Part shown: piece after piece, positions 1-56,283 of the stretch | Layout: each line of letters opens with the position of its first letter | Numbering within the stretch: the stretch's first letter is position 1 | Assembly: GCA_964016885.1 (NCBI GenBank) | Contig: OZ024743.1 | Span: forward strand, 293,074,001 to 293,138,000 | Reading direction: 5' to 3' | Length of the DNA: 64,000 nucleotides | From: Eledone cirrhosa | Lineage: Eukaryota | Made by a program: the position numbers and the translations under genes | Notes under the pieces: model-generated | Databases searched by the model: none | Told to the model about the DNA's origin: nothing | What the model saw: the letters and a program-made list of their open reading frames with translations, nothing else

Positions 1-1273
<1,273 letters not shown>

Positions 1274-1445
1274 AGGTGCAATACTGGTTGTGTAAAATGG
1301 TCCAATAACTTAATGTTAACATATTAAGTTCTCCACGCTTTTGTATATCTCCAATTTCATTCGAGGGAACAGCTAGATGATGTAAAACGGAATATAAGTA
1401 TCAAAATGAAAATCTGAAGGCAAAGGTAAAATTCCAATCACTTAA

Positions 1446-1519
1446 TCACGACACATGTTTCAATAAGAGACATATCGATTGTGAAGCCATGATCGATTAT
1501 CACTGATCTCATCAGGTGA
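1446..1519 (-). ncRNA. Type I hammerhead in the 3' pLTR of family A copy 1
   Basis: tcac-CTGATGA-47 nt stem II-GAAA-c atgt g-TC-gtga on minus strand. Confidence 0.75.
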
Positions 1520-3105
1520 AAATGAATTGTCTTCAAATTTTTGATATGAGGGAGAAAAAATAACGATCTTTCTTCATATAATTCATTCCCTCATATGGAG
1601 ACACACCAGTCAGTCAGAGACAAGGCAACTGCTATTAGCTTTAGTTGAGGTCATAAAAGTTTTCAGACTTCTATCGCTGCAAAAGACGCTGGACATCAAA
1701 CAATTCCGTAGGGATACAGTCAGTCACAGTTAGAAGTGAGTGGGTACACACACACTCCACACCCGCATACATCGGCTCGAGGTCAAAGAAAAATAAAAAT
1801 AAAAATAAAAATAAAAATAAATACTTATATATACACACATTAACACAGTATTAAACCCGCAGAATTAGCGTGGGTGGGTACACACACACTTCCACACACA
1901 CCGAAGCGATATCCGAGAAAAAGCACATATAAGAATGTACCAACACAGCAATCACCGATAAGTTAGTTCGCAAAGCAACAGAAGTTATGTCGGTCAAATC
2001 TCAATTTGACGATGTAAATTGGAAATATTGGGTTAACCAACGCTACACATACATACACACACACACGCGCGTGCGTGCAAGTAAGTTCAGTTCAGTGTTC
2101 TGCTATACGTGTATAGATCCAATTATAACATCCATATCTTCAAGTGTGTGTTATGGTAAATGGTATATACACATCCGAATCGTCCAAAACATGGGGGGGG
2201 GGGGAGGGGTCCGGGTATGTACACATCCATGTGAAGAGCTCAATTTGACGATGTAAATTGGAAATATTGGGTTAACCAACGCTGCACACATACACACACG
2301 CGCGCGCGCGTGCGCGCAAGTAAGCTCGGTTCAATGTTCTGCTATACGTGTATAGATCCAATTGTAACATTCATATCTACAAGTGTGTGTTATGGTAAAA
2401 GGTATATACACATCCGAATCGTCCAAAAAATGGGGTGGGGATGTCCGGGTATATACACATCCATATGAAGAGCAAGCAATCAGCTCATGTCGAACTCCTT
2501 GTGTACCGCTGTCCAGTTGAAAATCAGAATCACCAAATCCGTGCGTACAAGCAACTGCAATGTGGGCCGGCAAAGGGCTCTATGTAGGGTTGGGTATAGG
2601 GTAAATGAGTCCGCAAGTGCGATCTCCCGCCACATGGGCCAATGAGCTTTTAAGATAGTTGTTAAAGTGGTGGAGGTGTGTTATTCAGCATAGAAGGTGA
2701 AGTAAGAAAATACAGGATAGTGAAAACCAGAGGATGTGTGTAGGCCCATTAATGGTGTGTCAGTATCGTTGTTCAATCCGTAACAGTGAGTCCTCCATGG
2801 TTAGATGATCACGCATCAAAACCTGGTGTAGTGTTCAGTCGGTAGGAACGTGACATTCGTAAATGTGGGAGCTCAATGTCTAAAGGAAGCGGGTAATGTG
2901 TGTAGAGCTATGTATAGGGAGCGTAATCGGTCCTAAGTGTGTAATCAATCTAACTATTTACTAGCTGTGAGAACTCCGTGGAAACAGGCCGAGTATCTTT
3001 GCAAGTGCGCAAACAATCTTCGCCGTCTAACTACCTAAGTGTGTGACTGTCCGTTTATTGAGAGAACTCTATGGCTAAAGTAGAGAGGGAGGAGTTATTG
3101 GTAGG

Positions 3106-3849
3106 TTACCTTCCAAAAATCCTGCGGAAGGTTTTTGAGGTTCTATGTTGACAGTTGCTGAAAAAATCTGCTCTTCTATTAATTAATAGGGGGCCGCCTC
3201 TAATAATAATGAAAGTTTCAGCTATACATAAATTGCAGACGCCAGTGCTACCGTTATAAGGTTGGGCTGAACAAACTATGGACCAGGATAAGGAGTGCTC
3301 TATATTCTGAAGTTTAAGCTTCCAGACTAATTCCGAAAGTGCCATGCTATTTTTCTTGTCTAATCTATTAAAGGTATGGCGGTGATTATACCATCTATCC
3401 TTAAATTCCGTGGCAGTTGCCCCAACATATCTAAAGGTTCTATCAGGAGTGGAGACCTTACAGTCGTAGATTATGTTTTTGGTAAGGCATTTCCCAGCCA
3501 AGGGGCAGGTGGTGGTACTTCTGCAGTTGCATTTTTTGCTATCGATCTGGGTGGTTCGGGATTGACTACGGTACCTTTGGGGTCGGGTCTCAGTTCTAGT
3601 TTGCTCTATGGGTAAATTCCCTGGGGTAGGGGCGACCCGACTCACCTCACGTGTATGAGTCAGTTCCTCAATAGAGCTGCCATTGTTCCTGCCATGCCTA
3701 ATTCCCTCATTGGCTGTCTTAAGTCTACTATAATTCATCTTAGCTATATTCTGAGCTATGTTACTAGTTGTGGAGTAGGACAGCTTGATAGTATTTCTAT
3801 TGAATATTTTATAATATCTGTGCGATCTGGGGAAGCATTTGTTTAAGGC
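3106..3849 (-). pseudogene. PLE ORF C-terminal fragment: RT thumb/linker, CNC-CP-C zinc motif and GIY-YIG endonuclease
   Basis: FPRSHRYYKIFNRNTIKLSYS; CNCRSTTTCPLAGKC; IIY...YVG...FKDRWYNH; CNLC. The first ~10 residues of the listed ORF come from the inverted pLTR. Confidence 0.9.
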
Positions 3850-3869
3850 ATCAAAAATTTGAAGACAAT

Positions 3870-3957
3870 TCATTTTCACCTGATGAGATCAGTGATAATC
3901 GATCATGGCTTCACAATCGATCTATCTCTTATTGAAACATGTGTCGTGATTAAATGA
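3870..3957 (+). ncRNA. Type I hammerhead in the inverted pLTR
   Basis: CTGATGA 3880-3886, GAAA 3934-3937, GTC 3943-3945; stem I tcac/gtga plus tcattt/aaatga. Confidence 0.75.
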
Positions 3958-3990
3958 TTGGAATTTCACCTTGCCTTCGGATTTTCATTT

Positions 3991-4215
<225 letters not shown>

Positions 4216-4313
4216 GGAGGTGAGTTTTATTGTAGTACAATAAAGCAATGCAGATATCGGATAAGAAGCACTCTACAGTTTGTGGGACTGGAGTATGCAT
4301 ATATATATATATA

Positions 4314-4870
4314 TATGAGGGTCTGCTGAGTATGCATATATATATATGAGGGTCTGCTGAAAAGTTGATGGGCTGACCAAGATACTCTCATGGAATATAA
4401 CCAAAATGAGTTTTATTTTTCAACATAGATAGACCCCTTGCAGTCAACACACATCTTCCATCGGTGTTGTAGTGGTTAGATACAATTGGTGAAGAAGCTT
4501 TCATCCTGTTGGTCAAAACTGTCATCAACAGCAGATATAACGTCGTTACGACTGCGATACTGATTGCCAGCCAAGTGCTTGTTCATGTTGCCGAACTGAT
4601 TATTCTGGGAATATGGTGATGAACCAATTCAAATCCACAGTCACGTACAGCCGCCATTGAAACTAAGAACTTGTGTGCTGGGGCATTGTCCTGGTGAAAC
4701 AAGACCCCTTTCGTCAGTTTCCTGGGCATTTTGGTATTGATATCCTTTCGGAACTGCCTTGGTAAGTTGGCTTAGTTCTCTCCATAAATGGTAAGACCCT
4801 TTTGAAGATAGTCAAACAATGCCTTTTGCATCACAAAAATTTGAGGCCAGCACCTTCCCTGTAGAAACGA
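4314..4870 (-). mobile_element. Mariner transposase 3' remnant with terminal repeat
   Basis: Minus strand reads GKLTKGVLFHQDNAPAHK...QHRWKMCVDCKG..YVEK; starts with a TATGAGGG TIR-like end, locally duplicated. Confidence 0.85.
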
Positions 4871-5321
4871 CCAACATAGTATATACTATGTTATTTATTA
4901 TATATTATTTACAATATGCATGTAGGCAGATCTTTCTGGAAATAGGAGTGGTGTGTTGAGGGTATTGCGTGGCCATGAGAAGGGAAGGTGGCCCAAAATG
5001 TTTGAGAACATCTGCCTTAGGCGAAGTTTTCAGCACTGCGGTTGATATAACCGAAGAATGGGTCTTTGGATTAGATGGAGGTCAATCCTGGTAAGAACAT
5101 CTGTTAATCATTTTTTTTTATTCTTGTTTTCAAGTCGTTAGAATATCGAATAGAATGTTTTGCAATATTGATTCCGGTTTTCTCTAATCTGAGTTCAAAT
5201 ATTTTCGAGGTCAATAAAAATAATATTAGTTTTGTACTGGGATCGATTCTTTATATCTCTTTCTCACTTTCCCTATACCACTCTCTCTATCTCTCTCTAT
5301 CTATTCCTCTCTCTCTCTGTA

Positions 5322-5380
<59 letters not shown>

Positions 5381-5527
5381 ACTAGAAATAGATTGACATA
5401 TATATATATAAAATAAACATGGAACAATCACAGGGAATAATTTGTAAAGTGTGTAAGCACACATAGCTATGTAGGTAACTAATTAAAGTTTAACTAGAAC
5501 TTCAAATATACCTTTTAAAATGATTAA

Positions 5528-5621
5528 TCTCCTTTGTATATATTTCTTTAAATAAAAAATATATTTCACCAATTAATCAGTAAATCACAGTAGTCAAATC
5601 TCGGATGGTCACCAAAGGAGA
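5528..5621 (-). ncRNA. Type I hammerhead fold with G3-C8 swapped core (GUGACCA)
   Basis: tctcctttg-GTGACCA-t ccga..ttgg t-GAAA-tatattt..aaatata-TA-caaaggaga; 9-bp stem I, 7-bp stem III. Confidence 0.75.
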
Positions 5622-6070
5622 AGATCCAACCATCTGTGTTTACACAGCAAATGCAAATCTGTGAATGACTCGTACCATGTTTTGCATTTTCTTTTAAATA
5701 CACACATCGCACAGCGTCATCCCAGTGGCGTGAATAGGATTATCGACAGCTAGAAATAACAGCCGAGTCCATTCAACTGAGTTTGCTCTACAATTAATGG
5801 GCCGTATATATATCCAAAATTAAATTGAGAGTTGTCATATCTGAGAGACATGCGCCATATCCACTGCAGAATAAGCTCAAAGATTCCAATGAATAGATCC
5901 GAGCATTTTATATCAACTAGAAATAGATTGACATATATATATATATATATAAAATAAACATATGGAACAATCACAGGGAATAATTTGTAAAGTGTGTAAG
6001 CACATATAGCTAGGTAGGTAACCAATTAAAGTTTAACTAGAACTTCAAATATACCTTTTAAAATGATTAA

Positions 6071-6164
6071 TCTCCTTTGTATATATTTCTTTAAATAAAA
6101 AATATATTTCACCAATTAATCAGTAAATCACAGTAGTCAAATCCCGGATGGTCACCAAAGGAGA
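6071..6164 (-). ncRNA. Second copy of the G3-C8 hammerhead fold
   Basis: Same core and stems as 5528-5621. Confidence 0.75.
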
Positions 6165-6439
6165 TTAATCATTTTAAAAGGTATCTATATTTGAAGTGGT
6201 AATTAAACTTTAATTAGTTACCTACCTAGCTATGTGTGCTTACACACTTTACAAATTATTCCCTGTGATTGTTCCATATGTTTATTTTATATATATATAT
6301 ATATATATATATGTCAATCTATTTCTAGTTGATATAAAATGCTCGGATCTATTCATTGGAATCTTCGAGCTTATTCTGCAGTGGATATGGCGCATGTCTC
6401 TCAGACATGACAACCCTTAATTTAATTTTGTATATATAT

Positions 6440-7438
6440 ATATTAGAAAGATCGAGTATCGAAAAATCGGCGCACGAGTTCACGATAAACGAGATTCGAC
6501 ATGAGCGGCAGAGGGCTCAATAATTCAGATGAATCAGAGCTATAACTATCGTTAAAATACCGTCACATATAGAACAAGTCTACAATCAACCATACGATTT
6601 AAAATCGATAAACGAAGATTCGGGACAAACAGATAAAAAATATCAATAAAACAATACGTCAATAATTTAAATGAATGTAATATCATACCCGGACCCACTA
6701 GACAGGTGTTAAATCTAGCTTCATGGGTTTCTGTAAATCCTTAGACTGTACTCTATCAGCTCACATATAAATATAAAAGCCTACTAGAGCAAGCGGAACG
6801 GAGTTTTACTTTCTCAACGAGTTTTTTTCCTGGCGGTAGAGGAGCCAACTACCAGTGAAAAACGCACATGGCATTAGACAAGGGAGATAACCCCTATATC
6901 CGCGAAAACAATTCGAGTGAATGTGGAAATACACATATCGAATTAGAGTGCTCAATAGACATGTTAAAATAAAACAAAAGCTATTCATCACTCAATAGAA
7001 TCGACAAAAAATGAGCAATAAAATTAACTGGTGGATAGCTATGTCCAGAGCTAAATATATTAGAAAGATCGAATATCGAAAAATCGGCGCACGAGTTCAC
7101 GATAAACGAGATTCGACATGAGCGGCAGAGGGCTCAATAATTCAGATGAATCAGAGCTATAACTATCGTTAAAATACCGTCACATATAGAACAAGTCTAC
7201 AATCAACCATACGATTTAAAATCGATAAAGGAAGATTCGGGACAAACAGATAAAAAATATCAATAAAACAATACGTCAATAATTTAAATGAATGTAATAT
7301 CATACCCGGACCCACTAGACAGGTGTTAAATCTAGCTTCATGGGTTTCTGTAAATCCTTAGACTGTACTCTATCAGCTCACATATATATATAAAAGCCTA
7401 CTAGAGCAAGCGGAACGGAGTTTTACTTTCTCAACGAG

Positions 7439-7443
<5 letters not shown>
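6440..7443. repeat. Partial tandem repeat (~617 bp period, ~390 bp direct repeats), probable non-autonomous PLE derivative
   Basis: ~6440-6825 nearly identical to ~7057-7443; TA-rich/(TA)n flanks; no ORF. Confidence 0.75.
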
Positions 7444-7502
<59 letters not shown>

Positions 7503-8386
7503 GAAGAAATCGACTGCGTTCAGACTTGGAGTGGAGATGGGTTACGCCAGCTTTAAAGTGGTCAACCCACGCCATATGGCACTACGACATTCCTACAACT
7601 CCATTAGGAGTTACGTGTCCATATATTTGCCTATGCGCGAATGCATATCTAAGATCGCCTATCTACACTGGTTTGAATGAAAAGGTTGTAGGTACGAAGC
7701 TCCAGGCGCTTGAATCACTTGCGTAGCTTCAAAGCTGTAACAAAATTTACATGGCTCTTCTGTTGTGTTACTTTCTCTCGTTTGTGCAACCAAGCGTATG
7801 CATATGTATGTGTGTATGTGTGTGTATATAAAAACATATTAACGAGTGTCTCTCTCTCTCTATATATATATTTATTTATAAATATATATATATATTTCTC
7901 TCTCTCTCTCCCTCTTTCTCTCTCTAGCTCTGTAATATATTTTATGTAGATATATAATATCAGGTATATAATGGATGTGCTTAAGTTTGTATATGTTAAT
8001 CTAGCTGGTACTGGCCTAGATTTTATATCCATCTGTCATGTATATTCAAATTTTAGATTAATCTCTTCGAAACGGAGACATAACTAACGGTGGGGGGGGG
8101 GTCGATTACTAACAAAAAGATGAGTAGTAGTTAGAGTGAGATTCGAATTATGTTGCGTGTATACATTGTTTATATAAATATATATGTATGTGTGTGATTA
8201 AGCATATAATAATTTTCAAGTCTCTCACCCTGTCGTACACACATATTTCTACATAAATGTATGTGTATGTATATATGTATCTATATATGTGTGTATGTAT
8301 GTATGTATGTATGTGTGTATGTATATATGTGTGTATGTATATATGTATGTGTGTATGTGTGTATGTATATATGTGTGTATGTATGT

Positions 8387-8708
8387 TTTAACAAAATTTT
8401 TTGTGGAGCGAGAGACTCCTCGTCTTAATAAAGACATATCTCTAGAAGGTCACTCTGATGTAAAACCTGCAACTTCGTTTGCATCCAATGATGTAGACCA
8501 GTTCTTCTTTTGAGGCAAATGCATTCGATGTTCAGAGAGTGGCATTGGCCCCGTGCACAGTATTTCCTTACTTAAAAAGCTTCAAGCACAGGCTTTGCTT
8601 GATATGTGACATTTTTGGCGATGCATGGTATTGCTGACCATAGCAGGACTAAAAAACCATATCCATAATACTCATATGCCATTACTCGAAATCGAGTTGC
8701 AGCCTTCG
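8387..8708. repeat. Interspersed repeat remnant in (TATG)n, related in inverted orientation to 48553-48960
   Basis: Shared segments acctgcaac..atccaatgatgt.gac..gttcttctttt and cgagttg(g)cagcc. Confidence 0.55.
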
Positions 8709-8959
8709 TGTATGTATGTATGTATGTATGAATGTATGTATGTATGTATGTATGTATGTATGTATGTATGTATGTATGTATGTATGTATGTATGTATGTA
8801 TGTATGTATGTATGTGCTATCAGAAGTTCCACCCATCGTGCAGTTTTCTGCTAGTGTAAGACAGTGTTTCGTAATGAATCTCTCAATGTATACAAATGCA
8901 AATGACACGAATTCACACGAACATGTCTATTCTCTACAAAATATCGACTCGTAACTGAG

Positions 8960-9100
8960 TAACTGAGATTCGAACCCGTACCGATTTTTTAATAAAAGAT
9001 TTTTATCTACTATCGGATACTGCAGTAGACAGAGGCGCCAGCGTGAAATTGAACACCTCATTTCTTAGGTATCGGGTGAGTGCGTAAACCATATGATAAG
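8960..9100 (-). repeat. Degenerate tRNA-like (Pol III A/B box) segments
   Basis: Minus-strand B boxes GGTTCGAATCTC and GTTCAATTTC; degenerate A box TATCATATGG. Confidence 0.5.
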
Positions 9101-9136
9101 GGGTTCTCGGTCATCAATTGAGGCATTTTAGAAGAT

Positions 9137-10273
9137 ACTAGCAATGTATCCCGGCGTTGCACGGGTAAGAAGATTGGTAATAGCACCTCCAATAAGAAAT
9201 GTTTATTTGTGAGTGCCTGTGAAATCTCACGAAAACATACCGACAGGAAACTTGTTTTATTTAGAGAAAATTAAGAAGTTGAAAGTATAGTTTAGCTGTC
9301 TACGTGCATTGTTAATAGAAATATTGTTGAGTCCCTTCTTTTCATACTCCTCTGTTTTGGCCTTTTGGAGTAAATGTGAAAGAGAAAGTCACAGGTTAAG
9401 TTGGCAGAAGGTTCCAGTGTCATAGCAGGCTACTTACCTCAAAAGTTCATTCGCACTCTTTCCACTAAGTCACTCTATCTCTCTATCCCTCTCGGTGCAG
9501 TCCCTTGCGAATTTCTCGCGTAGGCCTGGTGTAGATTTGCACCCGATCCATCTGCCCGATGCACATGTCCGCTTTGTACGACTTTTGGAGTGAGTATTGA
9601 CCAGCAGTACGTTGTTCGGTATTATTACGAAAAGATGTAGCAGATAATCCTGCGTAAACTAACAGCTCGGGGGGAAATTGCTTACCTCGAAGATTCATTT
9701 GCCATCGTTCTTGTCAATGCTCCGTTTAGTTGGTATTTGTTGGTCTACAGTTAGATGAATGGCGCACAAAGGGTTAATGTTTATTGGCAAGAAGTGCAAC
9801 TGGGCTGGCTTGCCTCGCTTTTATATTAAAACAACAGATTAAAGTTTAAGCAAAGAATCGCTGATTTCACCCTTAACGGGATCTTCTGAAACTAAAAAAA
9901 TCAATCTGTAAATATTTCGAAAAACGTTGCAACCGAAGGAAAATAGGAAGACGATACTTTGGTTCGAGAAGACGTTCCCTGAACTGAAAATAGCGAACAT
10001 AATACGTCATCAATGTTTGTCAGAATGTCGTAATGCAGACAGCCAGGCATACAGACAAATATTATAAGAGCGCGACGGAGATGGATAACCGGCGCCTAAC
10101 ACCCCTTTAACAACAGAAAATTGAAAAATAAAAGCTGCAGTTAATATCTTTAGATAGCAAGGAATATATAAATGCAAGTGTGAAGTCAATCGGAGTAGAA
10201 ATCTGGATTTGTATGGATTTTGCAAAAATGAGGGGACACACAGACAACTACAGCTTTATATATATGTATAGAT
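9137..10273 (+). mobile_element. Non-autonomous Helitron/Helentron-like (Lep1/HINE-type) element
   Basis: 5' TACTAGC...CCCGGCGTTGCACGGG hairpin; 3' ACACAGACA...GCTTTATATATATGTATAGAT, resembling Lep1/HINE termini. Confidence 0.6.
9834..9909 (-). ncRNA. CAGAAGA-core hammerhead fold within a family B 3'-end fragment (~9826-10010)
   Basis: Homologous to 23669-23743 and 40822-40897; stem III partly mutated. Confidence 0.55.
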
Positions 10274-10417
10274 ACATTGACCTGTAGCTAGAGGTGTAAA
10301 TATCCGGTTAAAAACATTGGAAAAAGTTTAAATGTAGTCGTCCAATGTAAGTGACTATAAATAATAGTTGATAATATCGGGTAAAATACCTGCGGAGACG
10401 GAAAGAATTAGACGGAG

Positions 10418-10490
10418 GAGACTAGGAGGAATTGAACTTCACATCTCTCAGAAGCCGGGCAAATGCATTAACCATTACGCTAAAAGTTCT
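10418..10490 (-). repeat. tRNA-derived segment with Pol III A and B boxes
   Basis: Minus strand TAGCGTAATGGTTAATGC...GTTCAATTCC. Confidence 0.65.
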
Positions 10491-10623
10491 CTGGGGTACT
10501 TTAGCCGATTTTCTCAGCTATTATCAATATGCAAATGAGGCTAACCAGCCCATGTACATAGGTTTCAAAACTATATGTTTTCGCCTATATTGAGTTCCAC
10601 CACAGAGCAAGGTAAGGGCACAC

Positions 10624-10668
10624 TGTCTTGATAACGACTAGAGTCAGAAACAATGATCGACGTAGACA
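10624..10668 (+). ncRNA. Type I hammerhead fold with U3-A8 core (UUGAUAA)
   Basis: tgtc-TTGATAA-c gact ag agtc a-GAAA-c..g-TA-gaca. Confidence 0.6.
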
Positions 10669-11679
10669 TTTACCCACTTTTGCTTTTGCTAGATGGCGCT
10701 ACGTTACCAGTTTCCAAACGTCATAGCTAAGGGCTTTCAAATGTCACTCATAAGCATACACTATATCGCTATATATACAAAATGCTCATGTTTATATGTT
10801 TACAGCAATGTTCGAGCGAATAACCTCATTATATATATATTTTTTTTTGTTAACCTGTTTGGCTTGCTTCGTCTTTTTGGCTCCGGTGGCTGATGGCTTC
10901 ACGACCACTGTTTTCATTTTATCTGACCTTTATAACGTATGTTAATTGCTCTGGTCTTATTTTAGTCCATTGAGCGCTTGCCGCATATCTGGAGGATTGC
11001 GTTTCGTTTTGTTTTTGGCCCCCACCGAAATACAATCTCACTGAAATTGTATTTATATATATATATATATATATATATACCTTATACATAAAGCTTTTAA
11101 AAATGTCATATTAATCTTTAATAATGGGTGGTTGTTTCTAATAAAACCGGAGAATTTCCACGAAATCCAGCTTCAATATATAATCTAATTATACACATTT
11201 ATAAGAAAACTGATTATTTATTTAAGTTTCAGTAATGGAACCCATATCTGCGCCATTGACCGCAGCCTAGTCGTCTTTAATGGTACTACCGGCTCTGCTC
11301 AAATGTATTATCGTTACCTCGGCAGTTGTAAAGAACGTGGTTCTTATTCCTAAAATGATTTGTTTTCTTTTGTTTTATTTTTTTAATCTCAAATTCGTGC
11401 TTAGTAAGGTATAGTGTTTGCTATTGTTTACATCTAGGTCGATTGTATGTGTGTGTGTGTATGTGTGTGCGATATTAAAGAGAAAATGAAATAGATGAAA
11501 GTGAGAACCACAAACACACACACACACACACATACATACATACACAGATACATTGTTACGATATAAACAGTTAAGATTTATGTAATGTATCCATGACTAT
11601 GTATCATTATATATATATATGTATGTATGTATCATTTATATATATCATCTATATGTATCATTTTATATATATATATATA

Positions 11680-11734
<55 letters not shown>

Positions 11735-11910
11735 ATCCCGGGTTCAATCGAGGGGTAACCACAGTAAGTAAGGTACTTAATACAGAGTATAGATATTTAA
11801 TATAGAAATGGCTTCTACAGGACTAGAACTGTTTCATTCGGTGGAAATCATCAGGAATCCCCTGACGATTTCTCCCGAATGAAACAGTTCTAGTCTTGTA
11901 GAAGCCATCT
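11735..11910. mobile_element. Palindromic mini-PLE remnant with two divergent hammerheads
   Basis: Inverted arms across 11808-11908; minus CTGATGA (11848-11854) and plus CTGACGA (11862-11868), each followed by GAAA-cag..(c/t)tg-TA-gaa. Confidence 0.75.
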
Positions 11911-12329
11911 ATGTATATATGTGTCAATATATAAATTATTAATACAATAACAGAGATAGTTTAAAGCTAATCTCTGACTGGTAACCATCTCACTCAACAA
12001 ACATTAGGTTATATTTTAATATAAACCCAATTTAAGTGTTTGGGGTGCTAACAATATGTATTATGTGGAAAAGCCAGTTGTATTATTTTATGAGATATAA
12101 TTAAAGTTAAAGTATATCTCTCTTTCCAAACAATTGTTTCATTATAAGTTTTCTACAAATTCGGAGAATATTTCCAGTTTATGTAGAAGCCTAATCTACA
12201 TTCATGTAAGAATATATTTAGGTGGGCGTTTATAAATCATCAGTGGAAGCCCATTAAACTTTGATATAAGAAAACCAATTCTTACCACAGTTAAAAATCG
12301 TGTCTGTTAAGTTGCTCCTTCCCGCATGT

Positions 12330-13010
<681 letters not shown>

Positions 13011-13148
13011 ATCCTATGGTTGGCGCAGGAACAGAATTAAATATTTATTTAAAACAACAGAAGGCCAGGTTAGAGATAACCATTTAAAGTTTTTTTGCAA
13101 CAATAAAACTTTAAAAGGATATCTCCAGCATAGCCTTCTGTTGTTTAC

Positions 13149-13179
<31 letters not shown>

Positions 13180-13230
13180 AGTGTGTGTGTGTGTATGCGT
13201 GTGTGTGCGTGTGTGTGTGTGTGTGTGTGC

Positions 13231-13372
<142 letters not shown>

Positions 13373-14164
13373 ATGTGTGTGTGTATTGTATATGGGCGAG
13401 ATGGTTGAGTTATATAGGGGTGTATAGTGTAATGGTTCATATGTATACAAACAGATATCTTATATATACGTGTGCTGATGTCTGTCTATTCGCTCATACA
13501 CCCAAACCATTGAGTGAAAATGTATGCGAGGGAAAGGGATGAATATAGAAAATATAGTGTCCCGGTGTGTATGAATACATGGTTTTGTGAGTGTGTTGAA
13601 ACATGCGGAAGAGAAAGAATTGCTTTATCTCTATATATGTATTTTATGGAGATAAGGATGAAAAGATAGACATCTTATGTCTATAACCTTCGCAAAACCC
13701 GTCGGTTTCGAAGATGTACATTCAATTATCCTATTAATTAAACATCTAACTAGTGAATTAGCGTGTTAATGACTGAGTATTCTACAGACATTTGTGGTCT
13801 TAACATAATTGCCTAGTTGAATTAGCATGATCTGTTGGATTCTCTACAGTTCCTGTCAAACCAATTTCACTCGTAATGTTAGGATTGACCCGAGGCGTTT
13901 GAATAAATGTCACTCAGTCATGCCTGAGTATGCAGGCCCGCTTCATAAATGATTAGATTGATTCAGTTTGTGTTCAGTTTGGTCTGTAGTTCGTCATAAC
14001 TGAGATAAAAATTAGGCGAGAAAGAGCATTACAGATGGATGACATTAAAAAAGGAAACATTGGGTGAAGAGGCTGCTCTGTGTTCCAGTGTGCAAGATTC
14101 TCTATGTGTGACGACAGGAAGAAAAACGAATATGTTAGGTGAGCTTGGGTGGAAATTGTATGTA

Positions 14165-14290
14165 ACTATATGTGAATTGGCAGACTCGTTTAAATTTGCA
14201 GTGTTCGTTCCGTCTCTTTGCTCTGTGAATTCAAATTCTGCCAATGTCAGTTTTGCTTTTCATCTATTTGCGGTCAATAAAATAATGTGC
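14165..14290 (+). mobile_element. Decayed tRNA-derived SINE
   Basis: ttcaaattctgcc...tttgcttttcatc...ggtcaataaaataa, matching the 29.7 kb SINEs. Confidence 0.6.
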
Positions 14291-15286
14291 CTGTCCATAA
14301 GTGTCGAATTAGAGGCGATTTTTGTTCCGGTACTTTGCATTCTGAATTCATATCTAACTGTGGCCTACTTGAGAAATAAAGTTAATGCGTCTCTCAATTT
14401 AATACCACCTTGGGCCTTCGGGTAACTTGATGGTGTTCCTATTTCTGGTTTCAGGATACATTCCTCCCTCTCACCCACCTGTCTTGGAGACTCTGTAATG
14501 AGTCATTGGTACTGTCCTTTCATCCTTGACAACCTTAATAAATAGCTAATTCTAACATATAGGGACAGCAATGGTAATGGTAGAAAGGCAGAGTAAGAAG
14601 ACAGTAGGTCATTGGGTTAACTAGTGAAGTGTATTGGGTAAAGAGCCTTTACCAAACAGTTGGTTGGATTTTCCTTGAATGAGGACTATTATGGTTGTTT
14701 GTGTCGCAAAATCGCCGTCTATAATTGTTTATAGTTTGAATATTTTCTGCTTCTAAAGTAAAAAACACTAATGTTTGTGACACCGTTTTTGTTGTTATGA
14801 ATGTGATACTGCCAGAAGGGTTCGTCAGTGATTCTAAGGGTTAGCACTTCTAACGACTTTTGCGGTCTCAATTTTGTATTATTTAACACTAGTGAGGACA
14901 AGATAACAAGCTGTTTCCTTGATATTCGTAAGTAATTATATCTTCAGGTCACTGAAAGCAATAATATTGTAATTTTTTCCTTTTGAAGAATGTTTTAGCG
15001 ATCTTTGTTCGTGAAGGTGTATGTTTGATGTAAGGTGTATAGGTTATATATCCATGACATTGACATATCAATAGATTTTTATAAAAACATTAAAATGCAG
15101 AGGTTTTCCAAGAAAGACAAACACAGGCTAATTCGCATCCTCCAAGTTTAACCGATTAGAAAATCAGTTAAGATTTGTAAAACATTTGAGTTTCCTTCAA
15201 TGTACACCCGTACAAAATCATATATGTGCATATGACATAGCAATACACATATATAAATCGGAATATCTCTCTCACACACACACAAC

Positions 15287-15598: not shown

Positions 15599-17392
15599 AT
15601 GGCTGAAGCTTCTACACAAAAATTCGAAGGAGGAAAGGGGAAGATATGCTTACAGCTTCCCCCTGCCACTGTCATAGTAGCAGATGTCAAGTACAAAGGT
15701 CAGCCAGAGGAAGGATTTTCTCCACCTGCTGACCGATAACTTGATGTTGCCATGGCAACAAACCAAAAGTGTGAAACAATGAACAAAAACAACACAACCA
15801 ACGGCACCAGCAACAACAACAACAACAATGCTACGAACGAAAACAACACCAACAACAATAACAATAACAACAACAACAAGACCAATAACTGTGATAACAA
15901 CAACAATGATAACAACAACATCACCAACAACAACACAAACAAGGAAAAGGTTCCTTCGCCCAGGCGGCAAGGAAAATCCTCGACTATCTGCCAGTAGATA
16001 TAAGCAAAGCGAAGGAGCTACTGGCAGATGCCAAAAAATACATAATGTACGGGGAAAATGGATCGTTTTCGATCCCCCCCCCCTGGAACTAAAAAGCCAG
16101 AGACTCCTAAACACTGCCATGTTTAGGACAGTCTCAAACAAAAGCAAAAAACCAGCTTAACCATCACAGAGTGAGATAGAGCTGGTTTTAAAAGATGTCA
16201 GGAAAGACATCATACTCATTCAGAAGGATAGACTCTACGGGAGTCTATCCATTCTCATGAAGGACAGGGACACAGCAGTGAAACTGTCCATAAAACCAAT
16301 CACATCCACCGCATACACCTTCTACCCTACGTACATGGGTAGAAGGACACAAAAAATAAAAATTCACACCATCCTTCCGATTATGGACATATGGTGGGTA
16401 TTGACAGCTTTCCTGAACCTAGACGATGACACACTAATATCCATGGGAAAGGCATCGAGTGACGCGTTCAGTGGAACGAGCCTCGAACTTGTAGTTCAAA
16501 TGAGGCCCGAAAGGATCGCCCAGATCGCTGAACGCGTCATACTGGATGATCATATTTTATCAACATTACCATTAAGGGTAGGCGGCCCTTGTGTTTACTC
16601 TGTGGAGTCAGAGGTCACCTGAGGGCTGTCTGTCCTCAACTTAATAAGAAAACCCCAATCCTGCCTACACCACCAACAACTGCACAACCAACACAAAATC
16701 AACAACCACAGCTCAAACCAAAACAAAACAATGTCCAACCCATCCCCCCCCCCACTAAAAAAAAACAATTTCCAAAACACCCGCACCGCAAACACAACCA
16801 GAAAATCTACCCCTCCCCTCCAACGCGGAAGATGACCCTCGTTCGTCGTCAGACGAGGAGGAGCACTTCCACACAATCAAAAGAAAAAAAAGAAAACACA
16901 CCTCTGACACACAAATGAAAACAACCCCTCCCCAAAACATAACACAGACACCAACACAAAAGACCACACAACAACAGCAAACAAAAAACACCACACAAAA
17001 ACAAAAACATGCATACACGTACATAAACACAAGAAATAAAAAACTGCTAAACATTGTGTACAACAATTTAGTAAAAACCCAAGGGCCTAACTTCACCCAG
17101 GCAGGGGATTTCCCCCTCCTCAAAATGATTAAGGCCCCAGAGGACACATATAAAACACGAAAAAACAACTTTCAATAGGACGTGCCCCCCCCCCCCCTGC
17201 GTCGGGCCCATTAACCGCGACCTCCAAAAAAACTTCCACACCCCCTCCCCAAACACCCACGCAACTCCAAACACCCCAACCACACAACACACTGATGCCC
17301 CCACACTTCCACAAACCACCACCCCACCCAACAACCCATCCCCCACCCTCATGGAAATTGTGCAGCCCGTTACCCGGGACGCAGAGAGGTAA
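15599..17392 (+). pseudogene. ORF1 (gag-like), frameshifted
   Basis: CCHC knuckle CLLCGVRGHLRAVC; Asn-rich and Pro/Thr-rich low-complexity tracts. Confidence 0.7.
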
Positions 17393-17416
17393 CTGCTTTT
17401 TCTCTTCACCACCAAC

Positions 17417-19822
17417 ATGGCTATGCTGAGAGTAGGCTGTCTAAATGCGCGTGGCCTGGGCTCAACTTGGAAGCAAGCAATGCTTCTAAATGACCTCAGG
17501 TCACAACGTATAGATGTGATGGTTATTTGCGAGGCCCGGATCAGCAACATGCGACAGCTGGCCCCCACCTTTGATAACTTTGAGATGCACGCATCTCTCT
17601 GTCAGCCCGGAGGTGGGGGTGGGGTTGTCGTTCTGCTGCAAAAACATCTGGGTCTCGCAACACAGACGGTACATTTGGACCCGGAGGGTCGACTAGTGGT
17701 TCTGGACCTTGGCAGTGGTGAAGGCGGAGCGTTTAGGTTGGTAGCCGTCTACGGCCCTTTCGGGTCAATGCGGCCGGACTTCTTCCATCGTCTGGAGATT
17801 TTTCTAGGGACGTCCCGCTCCTTGCTATTAGTGGGGAACTGGAATGGTATCCTAGATGCACGTTGGGACTACGTAGGGGCCTGTCCCGATAGAGAGGGGT
17901 GTAATAGCCTCAAAGAGTTAATCAGTCGTTTTGACCTGGCCGATAGATATCGACTAGATTTTCCGACTGCGCCAACCTGGACTTTGGCAAACCGTAGCGG
18001 ATCATCTAGGTCGTACCTAGATAGGATTTTTGTAAAAAATAAGGATAAGGACTTTTTAAGTTGTCCAAAGATGCGCATGGTTGGCTATTCAGACCACAAG
18101 TTAGTGACTTGCATGGTCAACCTTGACAGAACGCATAGACAGCGACCCGATTACTGGAAGCTCAACTTGTCCTTACCGGCAAGTAAGGCTTACAGGGACC
18201 GGATTAGCACTTTAGTTAAGGAGCGGTTGACGGGCGCCATCGTCAACAGCAGGTGGTGGGGATCTCTCAAAAGAGAGATTAGAGTAGTCTCTATAGAATT
18301 TAGTAAGGAGTTAGCCTCAAATAGAAATAGGAAGGAAAGGGAGTTGGTAGATAGTGTAGAAGAGGCAATTAGAAGCGACGACGTGGCCAGAGTGCTAGCG
18401 TCGAGAACGGCCCTGGGCCAGATCTTCGACGCGAAACACGAAGGCTGCATCGTCCGAAGCAAAATACGTGCTCTGGGAAACGAGGGGACCAAAGCTGTTA
18501 GCTGGGCCCGTGTGACAGATGCCAAAAGAGGGAGTAGATCCACTATCCGGTCTTTGTAAGACCAGGATGGACGGGTGATCCTTGAACCTAATCAGATGTG
18601 CGAGGCTTTTCAAAAGCATTTTGCCAGATTGTTCGGAAGGGGCGGGGAGCTGGTTGGGGAATTGCACTTCGGTCCATACCTCGACGGCCTGTCGCGTCTC
18701 TCGGACAGGGAGGCGAAGTCCTGCGAGGAGCCGATTTCAGCCGCTGAGATAGAGGACGTGCTGAGCCAATGCGGCAAACGCAAATCCCCGGGTCTCGATG
18801 GTCTTCCATACGAACTATATTTAGCTATGCCGGACTTGTTCCCCGATTTCCTCGAAGCGGTCTACTGCAACTGACAACAGAAAGGGAGAATTCCCTGTGC
18901 TGTGACCAAGGGTGTAGTCACGCTAGTGAGGAAGGACGAGAACAAGGGGGACGATATAAATAATTTCAGGCCCATAACTCTGCTAAATGCAGAGTTACAG
19001 ATTTTAGCCAAGGTGCTAGCAAAGAGGTTGGCGCTTGTCGTGGGCAACCTGGTGGGAGATGCGGAGACGTGCTATCCCGTCCAGGTCCATCCACGACAAC
19101 CTCCACCTCATGCGATACATCATAGAGAGGTTTGGGAACGAACCCGGCTTTGGTGGGGCCCTGATCAACTTGGATCAATCTAAAGCGTTCGATAGGGTCG
19201 ACCATGGTTACCTGGATGCGGTGCTAGTGGCGGCAGGCTTCGGACCCGTTGTCAGGGGCTGGATCACTGCCATGCACAGCAGCCGCATCTGCTCTAGGGT
19301 CAAGGTGAACGGCTACCGCTCGGAGCCGTTCGAAATCGCGCGGTCCATCCGACAAGGGTGCCCTCTCTCCTCCCTTCTGTATGTAATGACTCTAGAGCCA
19401 CTGCTGCGGAAGTTGGAGTTGTTGCAGGGCATCCCGTTGGAACCGGGATTGCATTGGTACACTGCTCGGATATTGCCGATCTGTGGGGCTATGTCGAAAA
19501 ACTGCTGTCAAGGGTGGGACCGATCCGGTTGACCACCGAGTCTCTTGTAACGATCAAGCCGCCTCCCCTCTTCAAAAACGAAGGAGGGGCGGTGTTTCTG
19601 TGCGTAATAGCCATGGCGAAAGAGGTTGTATGGCGAACGCGTCTGACTGAGGTCAGACACCTTTCTCTCTGGTCAACAACTGGTCCGTTTCTTCCGATAT
19701 CATTTCAGAAGAAGGATCAGGATGGAGAGAGAGGTGCTGCACCCCAGCCGTTTTTATGAAAGATGGGTGAAAGTCCGAGAATCGCCCGTGTGAATCGGCC
19801 TTCACTCTACATCAGACTATAG
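17417..19822 (+). pseudogene. ORF2 APE endonuclease-reverse transcriptase with stops and frameshifts
   Basis: CLNARGL, YLDRIF, SDH, YWKLN (APE); KSPGLDGLPYE, FRPITLLN, LDQSKAFDRVDH, RQGCPLS (RT). Confidence 0.92.
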
Positions 19823-56085: not shown

Positions 56086-56147
56086 TATTTTATCTGATGA
56101 AAGCGTACCAAAGTTTTTGGTACTCTTGAAATATATATAATAGAATA
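56086..56147 (+). ncRNA. Canonical minimal type I hammerhead in an orphan PLE tail (~56040-56287)
   Basis: tattttat-CTGATGA-aag gtacca..tggtac ctt-GAAA-t atat a-TA-atagaata; 8-bp stem I. Confidence 0.8.
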
Positions 56148-56283
56148 AATATGGTTTTATAAATATAGTTTCCGTTTATTTAATATCATTGAATATTCTA
56201 CTCCAGAAAATCTGTCGAGTGCTCTGAATCAGTTATAAATATTTATATTTGTTGAATTACCAACAACTTGAATATTCCTTCTG

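Follow-up and report, generated by a model that had tools for sequence, protein, structure and literature searches.

The segment described here, a stretch of 64,000 nucleotides (nt) from the genome of Eledone cirrhosa (GenBank assembly GCA_964016885.1, contig OZ024743.1, positions 293,074,001 to 293,138,000, forward strand; hereafter the window), contains on its minus strand a non-coding, partly tandem element with two copies of a hammerhead ribozyme motif (Table 1). In both copies the tertiary pair between core positions 3 and 8, canonically C3-G8, is reversed to G3-C8. An amplified G3-C8 core, three states of this pair within one family and a long covarying helix between the 5′ flank and loop II are what is new, as read from genomic copies. 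That sister lineages keep the pair as C-G or U-A suggests that the reversed form works in nature.

The hammerhead motifs and the 543-nt unit

Read from 5621 to 5528, the first copy has its stems in the order of a type I hammerhead, with stem I open. Stem I (5621-5613 with 5536-5528, Watson-Crick at 9 of 9 pairs) leads into a core of G3 (5612), U4, G5, A6, C7, C8 (5607) and A9; G12 to A15.1 lie at 5567-5564, and stem III continues beyond A15.1-U16.1 with seven Watson-Crick pairs and one U·G. The cleavage triplet, AUA, ends in A17 at 5537, which places the predicted cut between 5537 and 5536. The second copy, 543 base pairs (bp) away, lies with the first in a 224-nt repeat that is 96% identical; an inverted arm replaces its 5′ flank, lengthening stem I to 29 bp. 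An earlier description made from the letters alone (the original prediction) had named a 9-bp stem I, a 7-bp stem III, an AUA triplet and a GUGACCA core in both repeats, all of which were recovered on the minus strand. Absent from that description was the weakness of stem II, which opens with U10.1·U11.1 and continues with C-G, C-G, G·U and A-U/G·U beneath a loop of 28 nt.

Table 1. Coordinates of the hammerhead motifs, the repeat unit and the parts of the insertion, in window positions.
Feature	Position	Strand	Details
(TA)n microsatellite at the 3′ end of the insertion	5320..5378	.	Adjoins the end of the direct arm
Direct arm of the insertion, partial tandem	5374..6164	-	About 1.45 units; 3′ end (monomer about +171) abuts (TA)n
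Type I hammerhead motif, copy 1, G3-C8	5528..5621	-	Stem II 5605-5601 with 5568-5572; stem III 5564-5556 with 5538-5546
Monomer, predicted cut to predicted cut	5537..6079	-	543 nt, 33% guanine plus cytosine (GC), no open reading frame (ORF)
Flank/loop II helix (P0), 3′ strand, inside loop II	5580..5600	-	Begins right after the 5′ strand of stem II
Flank/loop II helix (P0), 5′ strand, abutting stem I	5623..5643	-	21 nt, 5′ of stem I
Type I hammerhead motif, copy 2 (G3 6155, C8 6150)	6071..6164	-	Predicted cut between 6080 and 6079
Inverted 5′-truncated arm	6156..6443	+	Monomer about +1 to +275; joined via 9-bp stem I microhomology

A relaxed type I descriptor run on the window returned both motifs, together with weaker alternative registers of the same bases and one other canonical hammerhead, and ten shuffles of the window gave no match of comparable strength (stem I of at least 9 and stem III of at least 8). 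A second register, through a CUGAUUA word in loop II on which the descriptor was silent, was rejected by eye, having no stem I partner. This copy has neither the canonical C3-G8 identity nor a match to the Rfam model: Rfam gave no hammerhead match in window positions 1-15000 at E≤5. The miss is not specific to G3-C8, because four loci holding C3-G8 or U3-A8 copies also gave no hammerhead match, at E≤10.

The unit between the two predicted cuts is tandem and non-coding, as had been proposed, its longest ATG-initiated frame having 35 codons. Same-strand neighbours are spaced by 539-546 nt in 7 of 11 distinct pairs (duplicate fetches removed). Folded as a circle, the unit reaches -133.5 kcal/mol (z -4.9 against 30 shuffles). 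The locus is not a clean dimer, the 5′ flank of the upstream copy having been lost to the inverted arm.

Variation at the 3-8 pair across the family

The host genome, of 3.0 Gb, is rich in microsatellites, and a 161-nt query returned 1,473 first-look candidates. An exact pattern built on one stem I context, with positions 3, 7 and 8 left free, gave 489 matches genome-wide against 2 for the reversed control. Positions 3 and 8 form a Watson-Crick pair in 444 of these 489 copies: G3-C8 in 387 (by subtraction), C3-G8 in 50 and U3-A8 in 7. The other family copies thus do not lack the G3/C8 pairing, as the original prediction had allowed they might; 387 have it, and most others carry another Watson-Crick pair. 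The 45 mismatched copies are divided among G3-U8 (12), C3-C8 (7), A3-C8 (6), C3-A8 (6), G3-A8 (6), C3-U8 (4), U3-C8 (2), G3-G8 (1) and U3-G8 (1), with no class above 12, and three clustered G3-U8 copies represent a single segmental duplication. A wider stem I pattern gave 1,541 matches with U3-A8; in the main stem I context of that form, 17 copies have another base at position 3 (three of them being C3-G8) and 16 have another base at position 8.

Position 7 is mixed among 171 aligned copies (C in 91, A in 72, U in 7), and the other 11 core positions, including U4, G5, A6, A9, G12, A13, A14, A15.1, U16.1 and H17, are each kept in 164-168 of the 171, a set that includes many loci selected with patterns in which some core positions were fixed. 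U·U takes the place of the canonical G10.1-C11.1 closing pair of stem II in 128 of 134 copies scored across the three lineages. In a covariation set of 52 copies, where pairing at 3-8 is 100% by construction, paired cells amount to 94% in stem I, 97% in stem II (three pairs counted) and 96% in stem III; stem I shows a compensatory change from U-A to C-G in 14 of the 52 rows. Most G3-C8 copies keep pairing in the remainder of the core and in stems I and III.

A far more diverged C3-G8 relative was seen on the minus strand of another locus (L032:1421-1549), scoring 61 bits against 102-147 for the other searched copies; it is possibly an older sister family. The family's sequence also turns up in four sequencing runs, one of DNA and three of unrecorded kind, which carry no information on expression or circles. 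Occurrence in other species was considered and set aside as too thin: in runs assigned to four other organisms, the short contigs numbered 8, 2, 1 and 1. None of 119 metagenome matches to the pattern that were examined is homologous or has stems I and III jointly. Some metagenomes contain a recurring interspersed repeat (L256, L257, L275 and similar) that fits the pattern, lacks stems I and III and is unrelated by BLAST.

Trees and the number of pair changes

How often the pair changed was estimated from trees. The more careful one, built with the core masked, comprises 98 rows (30 of the 55 G3-C8 rows taken at random and all 68 others), and its bootstrap is not fully settled. One clade, supported at 99/93, contains 29 of the 30 sampled G3-C8 rows; the upstream flank of the G3-C8 row that falls outside is an inversion junction. 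A second clade, also at 99/93, contains 24 of 26 U3-A8 rows, and two C3-G8 rows are nested inside it at 100/99. The G3-C8 clade and the C3-G8 reversion inside the U3-A8 clade together imply at least three double changes. A quick tree of 171 rows agrees on the G3-C8 group (93 in the Shimodaira-Hasegawa-like approximate likelihood ratio test) and on deep C3-G8 branches. As to the order of the changes, the quick tree puts G3-C8 inside a grade of A8 copies and the careful tree leaves the order open (81/74); C7, common to basal G3-C8 and to C3-G8 copies, hints at a direct origin. Mean pairwise diversity is highest for C3-G8, at 0.168 against 0.094 and 0.082 in these non-random samples.

Since copy counts are inherited, the real evidence lies in about three events, in each of which pairing was kept, and in the absence of an amplified mismatch class. 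In lineages that each multiplied, a tertiary pair of the catalytic core has been swapped repeatedly, each time with compensation, and this constitutes genomic evidence of selection on the active fold.

A helix between the 5′ flank and loop II

The original prediction had also missed a helix, here called P0, between the sequence just 5′ of stem I and the interior of loop II (Table 1), in which 89-93% of cells are paired over 20 pairs in the 52 copies. Over the whole structure, both partners have changed in 62 cells, where shuffles give 19.6; the 3-8 pair, for which rows were selected, contributes 33 of the 62. The flank-loop duplex has an energy of -16.6 to -18.8 kcal/mol in four groups totalling 112 copies, and with the loops shuffled it reaches only -7.3 to -9.9. 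Crosses between the main U3-A8 lineage and the others weaken the duplex to about -10 to -12 kcal/mol, which indicates that both strands changed together; within that lineage, a copy's own duplex is better than a swapped one in 19 of 29 cases. RNAalifold recovered only part of P0. P0 starts next to stems I and II. Among junction types, at least three abutting pairs are present in 19 of 22 for the main U3-A8 lineage and in 28 of 33 for G3-C8; the proportion is lower for C3-G8 (8 of 16) and for the other U3-A8 types (3 of 6), and shuffles give 16-24%. In part of the G3-C8 clade, the P0 pairs closest to stem I are gone. The main U3-A8 lineage itself (loci L217-L236) has both P0 strands rewritten and stem I pairs changed, yet its core is kept and its stem II still begins with U·U.

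Together with stems I and II, P0 would be a pseudoknot, and stem I-II pseudoknots are known hammerhead stabilisers (PMC3088659). In our model P0 likely serves in place of the customary contact between loops or controls folding, and it could equally be an inhibitory helix.

Anatomy of the insertions

The ends of insertions were read from copies anchored on the 20-mer just 3′ of the cut, which has 752 matches; the first 100 listed were examined, some of them from the same insertion. In 86 of the 100 the 3′ end falls at one of three places in the monomer, +142-147 (8 copies), +169-173 (39) or +272-276 (39), all of them TA-rich sites and mostly running into (TA)n. The microsatellite adjoining the direct arm in the window is likely the insertion target. 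The 5′ ends are scattered: 94 of the 100 copies continue across the predicted cut, and 7 of the 100 reach upstream by more than a whole unit. An inverted 5′-truncated arm is common among the insertions, and the inversion point varies between copies. The inverted arm in the window starts within the first 9 nt past the predicted cut, a start that stem I microhomology explains equally well.

These copies thus combine 5′ truncation, an adjacent inverted copy and fixed 3′ ends at AT-rich or microsatellite targets. Penelope-like elements (PLEs) likewise have inverted 5′-truncated copies and a bias to (TA)n (PMC8557442), and internal initiation at AT-rich targets has been described for them (PMC11167929). 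Because the 3′ ends are fixed, we infer that the hammerhead strand is the template RNA.

Within the window, a C-terminal ORF fragment on the minus strand (3106-3888) has a Cys-rich linker and a GIY-YIG-like motif, and related ORFs reach 699 amino acids, some with YxDD. This fragment is putatively Penelope-like, to judge from its motifs and from the YxDD of its relatives; Pfam gave no match for it. Its family is very large (61,352 first-look candidates), and the 330 nt after the GIY-YIG-like ORF hold no hammerhead word except one isolated U3-A8-like word.

Proposed life cycle and competing explanations

We consider it likely that the element is a copy of a non-autonomous retrozyme, probably inserted by a Penelope-like reverse transcriptase (RT)/endonuclease from a probably circular template, and that its type I hammerhead has a probably functional G3-C8 pair. 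The original proposal of a non-autonomous, retrozyme-like element with a reversed 3-8 pair is supported. Function of the reversed pair is thought likely because the sister lineages keep the pair as C3-G8 or U3-A8. The cycle would start from a minus-strand transcript of more than unit length. The hammerhead would then cut after AUA, probably slowly or with help, given that stem II is weak and the rescue known for G3-C8 only partial, while P0 would likely stand in for the loop-loop contact or gate folding; the 543-nt monomer would likely be ligated into a circle. A Penelope-type enzyme would nick (TA)n and begin copying at one of the three internal UA-rich sites, where the fixed 3′ ends are seen. 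Copying continues past the cut site to end points that are scattered, and a second, inverted copy is often added.

Several points weigh against this cycle. The hammerhead fold (-14.3 and -13.3 kcal/mol for the two copies) is less stable by 6.6-9.3 kcal/mol than the minimum-energy fold (-20.9 and -22.6). In the latter, G12-A14 are tied up in a short hairpin; that hairpin was rejected as a selected structure, being without covariation. P0 and the active fold may not wholly coexist, because a full 20-bp P0 leaves an estimated 7 nt or so back to stem II, seemingly too short. The original prediction had stated that the C3G/G8C double mutant restores activity in vitro; there is some rescue, but it is only partial, also in a PLE hammerhead (PMC11167929, PMC8495972), and hammerhead cutting is not needed for PLE insertion in vitro (PMC11167929). 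The 5′ ends show no clear pile-up at the cut, with 6 of 100 within -1 to +6 against 2.5 expected (P about 0.04) and other 8-nt windows also reaching 6. No partner was identified: in the single PLE family examined, the neighbouring one (19 loci), the only sequence in common with the unit is one TA-rich match of 36 nt, and this family gave no match to our model. Finally, the copy counts are pseudo-replicated, and about three double changes would all keep the pair with a chance, by estimate, of roughly 1 in 27 if each were random.

Among the alternatives, the one that best survives, although we think it unlikely, accepts a real and selected hammerhead but makes the mobile RNA a long multimer that is uncut or slowly cut, the ribozyme serving to trim transcripts or as a fold seen by a Penelope-like protein. 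Reading through the cut in 94 of 100 copies fits a circle and is equally expected from uncut RNA, and for a lizard PLE unprocessed RNA is described as the dominant substrate, with no reads ending at the cut (PMC11167929). A circle is favoured over the multimer by the constant period of neighbouring copies and by circularly permuted copies. A further argument is a rare loss of the same 4 bases from both direct units at the locus, bases that the inverted arm and 106 of 108 other copies retain, albeit a parent dimer or a later duplication would also produce it.

Less probable still is that the G3-C8 lineage descends from a working hammerhead and has lost catalysis, the reversed pair having been fixed by chance or for folding and the element spreading without cutting. 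The weak stem II, the competing hairpin, the loss of the innermost P0 pairs in part of the clade and the small number of independent events would all suit such a lineage. It would not account for three separate switches that each retained Watson-Crick pairing, for the intact remainder of the core and of stems I and III in most G3-C8 copies, or for the lack of any amplified mismatch class among the 489, the clustered G3-U8 trio being one segmental duplication. The idea that this is a fold-back DNA element or a satellite, with inverted repeats that resemble a hammerhead only accidentally, appears very improbable and largely refuted by the family data already: inverted arms of 250-290 nt are present at the locus and AT-rich stems arise easily, but 50 homologous copies have canonical C3-G8 cores, inversion points vary while 3′ ends are fixed, shuffles gave no comparable match, and the 119 metagenome matches had neither joint stems nor homology.

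More tentatively, and as something that we would not yet call probable, a single family may have gone through all three states, C3-G8, U3-A8 and G3-C8, with a return to C3-G8, each state being carried by a catalytically active lineage that amplified on its own, with a helix of about 20 bp replacing the loop-loop contact and gating cutting, in a class that standard descriptors miss. If true, the family would be a natural, genome-recorded fitness landscape of the hammerhead core.

Relation to known hammerhead elements

The closest known systems are the non-long-terminal-repeat (non-LTR) retrozymes of metazoans (Cervera and de la Pena 2020, PMC7229834; Li et al. bioRxiv 10.64898/2026.07.22.740005). 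With these the family shares a non-coding, low-GC, head-to-tail unit with one type I hammerhead each, thousands of genomic copies, a self-paired predicted circle and coexistence with Penelope-like elements. Their units measure about 170-400 nt, a descriptive range (PMC7229834), compared with 543 nt here. The present family also differs from them in its G3-C8 and U3-A8 cores, its stable 9-bp stem III, its stem II, which begins with U·U and is capped by a loop of 28 nt, its long flank/loop II helix, and its insertions, mostly from less than one unit to 2.4 units with inverted arms; it is known here from genomic copies, its RNA and circle being predicted.

The hammerheads in the pseudo-LTRs of PLEs, including the U3-A8 form of Schistosoma Cercyon (PMC4209133), share the type I order, natural covariation at 3-8 and copies in opposite orientation 100-700 bp apart. 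Unlike them, the hammerhead here is not minimal, stems I and III having 9 bp each, and no ORF-bearing parent was found. Neptune, Naiad and the non-autonomous Chlamys/MRC1 PLEs (PMC8557442) show the same 5′ truncation, partial tandems, adjacent inverted copy and (TA)n targets; what sets the present element apart from these is the absence of an ORF and the presence of three alternative 3′ ends. The 543-nt unit has no clear 3′-end similarity to the one autonomous PLE family examined.

Several of the structural traits have each been described in natural hammerheads, namely U3-A8, U10.1·U11.1, a very short stem II and stem I-II pseudoknots (Perreault et al. 2011, PMC3088659). P0, at about 20 bp, is far longer than the six pairs of one tested pseudoknot there, and three pair states occur here in one family. 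An engineered G3-C8 variant is mentioned in PMC3884650, and the C3G/G8C mutant (PMC11167929, PMC8495972) has the same reversed pair, which is natural here, in at least 387 copies, with activity that is only predicted. The parts of PMC4209133 and PMC3088659 that were consulted do not report G3-C8, and our literature searches, which did not reach some relevant papers or the alignments of PMC3088659, found no natural G3-C8 hammerhead.

The function of hammerheads in PLEs has been called unclear (PMC8557442), and the present family bears on whether the hammerheads of Penelope-type elements and retrozymes act in vivo. Its three natural pair versions are a ready matched set for kinetics, and its fixed internal 3′ ends allow internal initiation to be tested with a non-autonomous RNA. 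A search in which C3 and G8 are obligatory, such as that of PMC3088659, would discard the G3-C8 lineage, and counts of ribozymes and retrozymes are therefore probably too low.

Other features of the window

Directly beside the element, positions 6444-7443 hold another partial tandem (617-nt period, 99% over 300 nt), which also ends in (TA)n. This repeat recurs in several other loci, sometimes beside the 543-nt family, and lacks the canonical hammerhead core word. A segment at about 4500-4860 on the minus strand resembles, by eye and from its motifs, a decayed mariner/Tc1 transposase fragment. On the plus strand, 16161-19759 is a broken element similar to long interspersed nuclear elements, with a PF03372 endonuclease/exonuclease/phosphatase domain (E 4e-08) followed by RT-like frames. 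An unrelated hammerhead with canonical C3-G8, an 8-bp stem I and a short palindromic stem III lies at 56086-56149 on the plus strand; similar sequence was found in about 20 fetched loci, and this hammerhead probably belongs to a high-copy family of its own.
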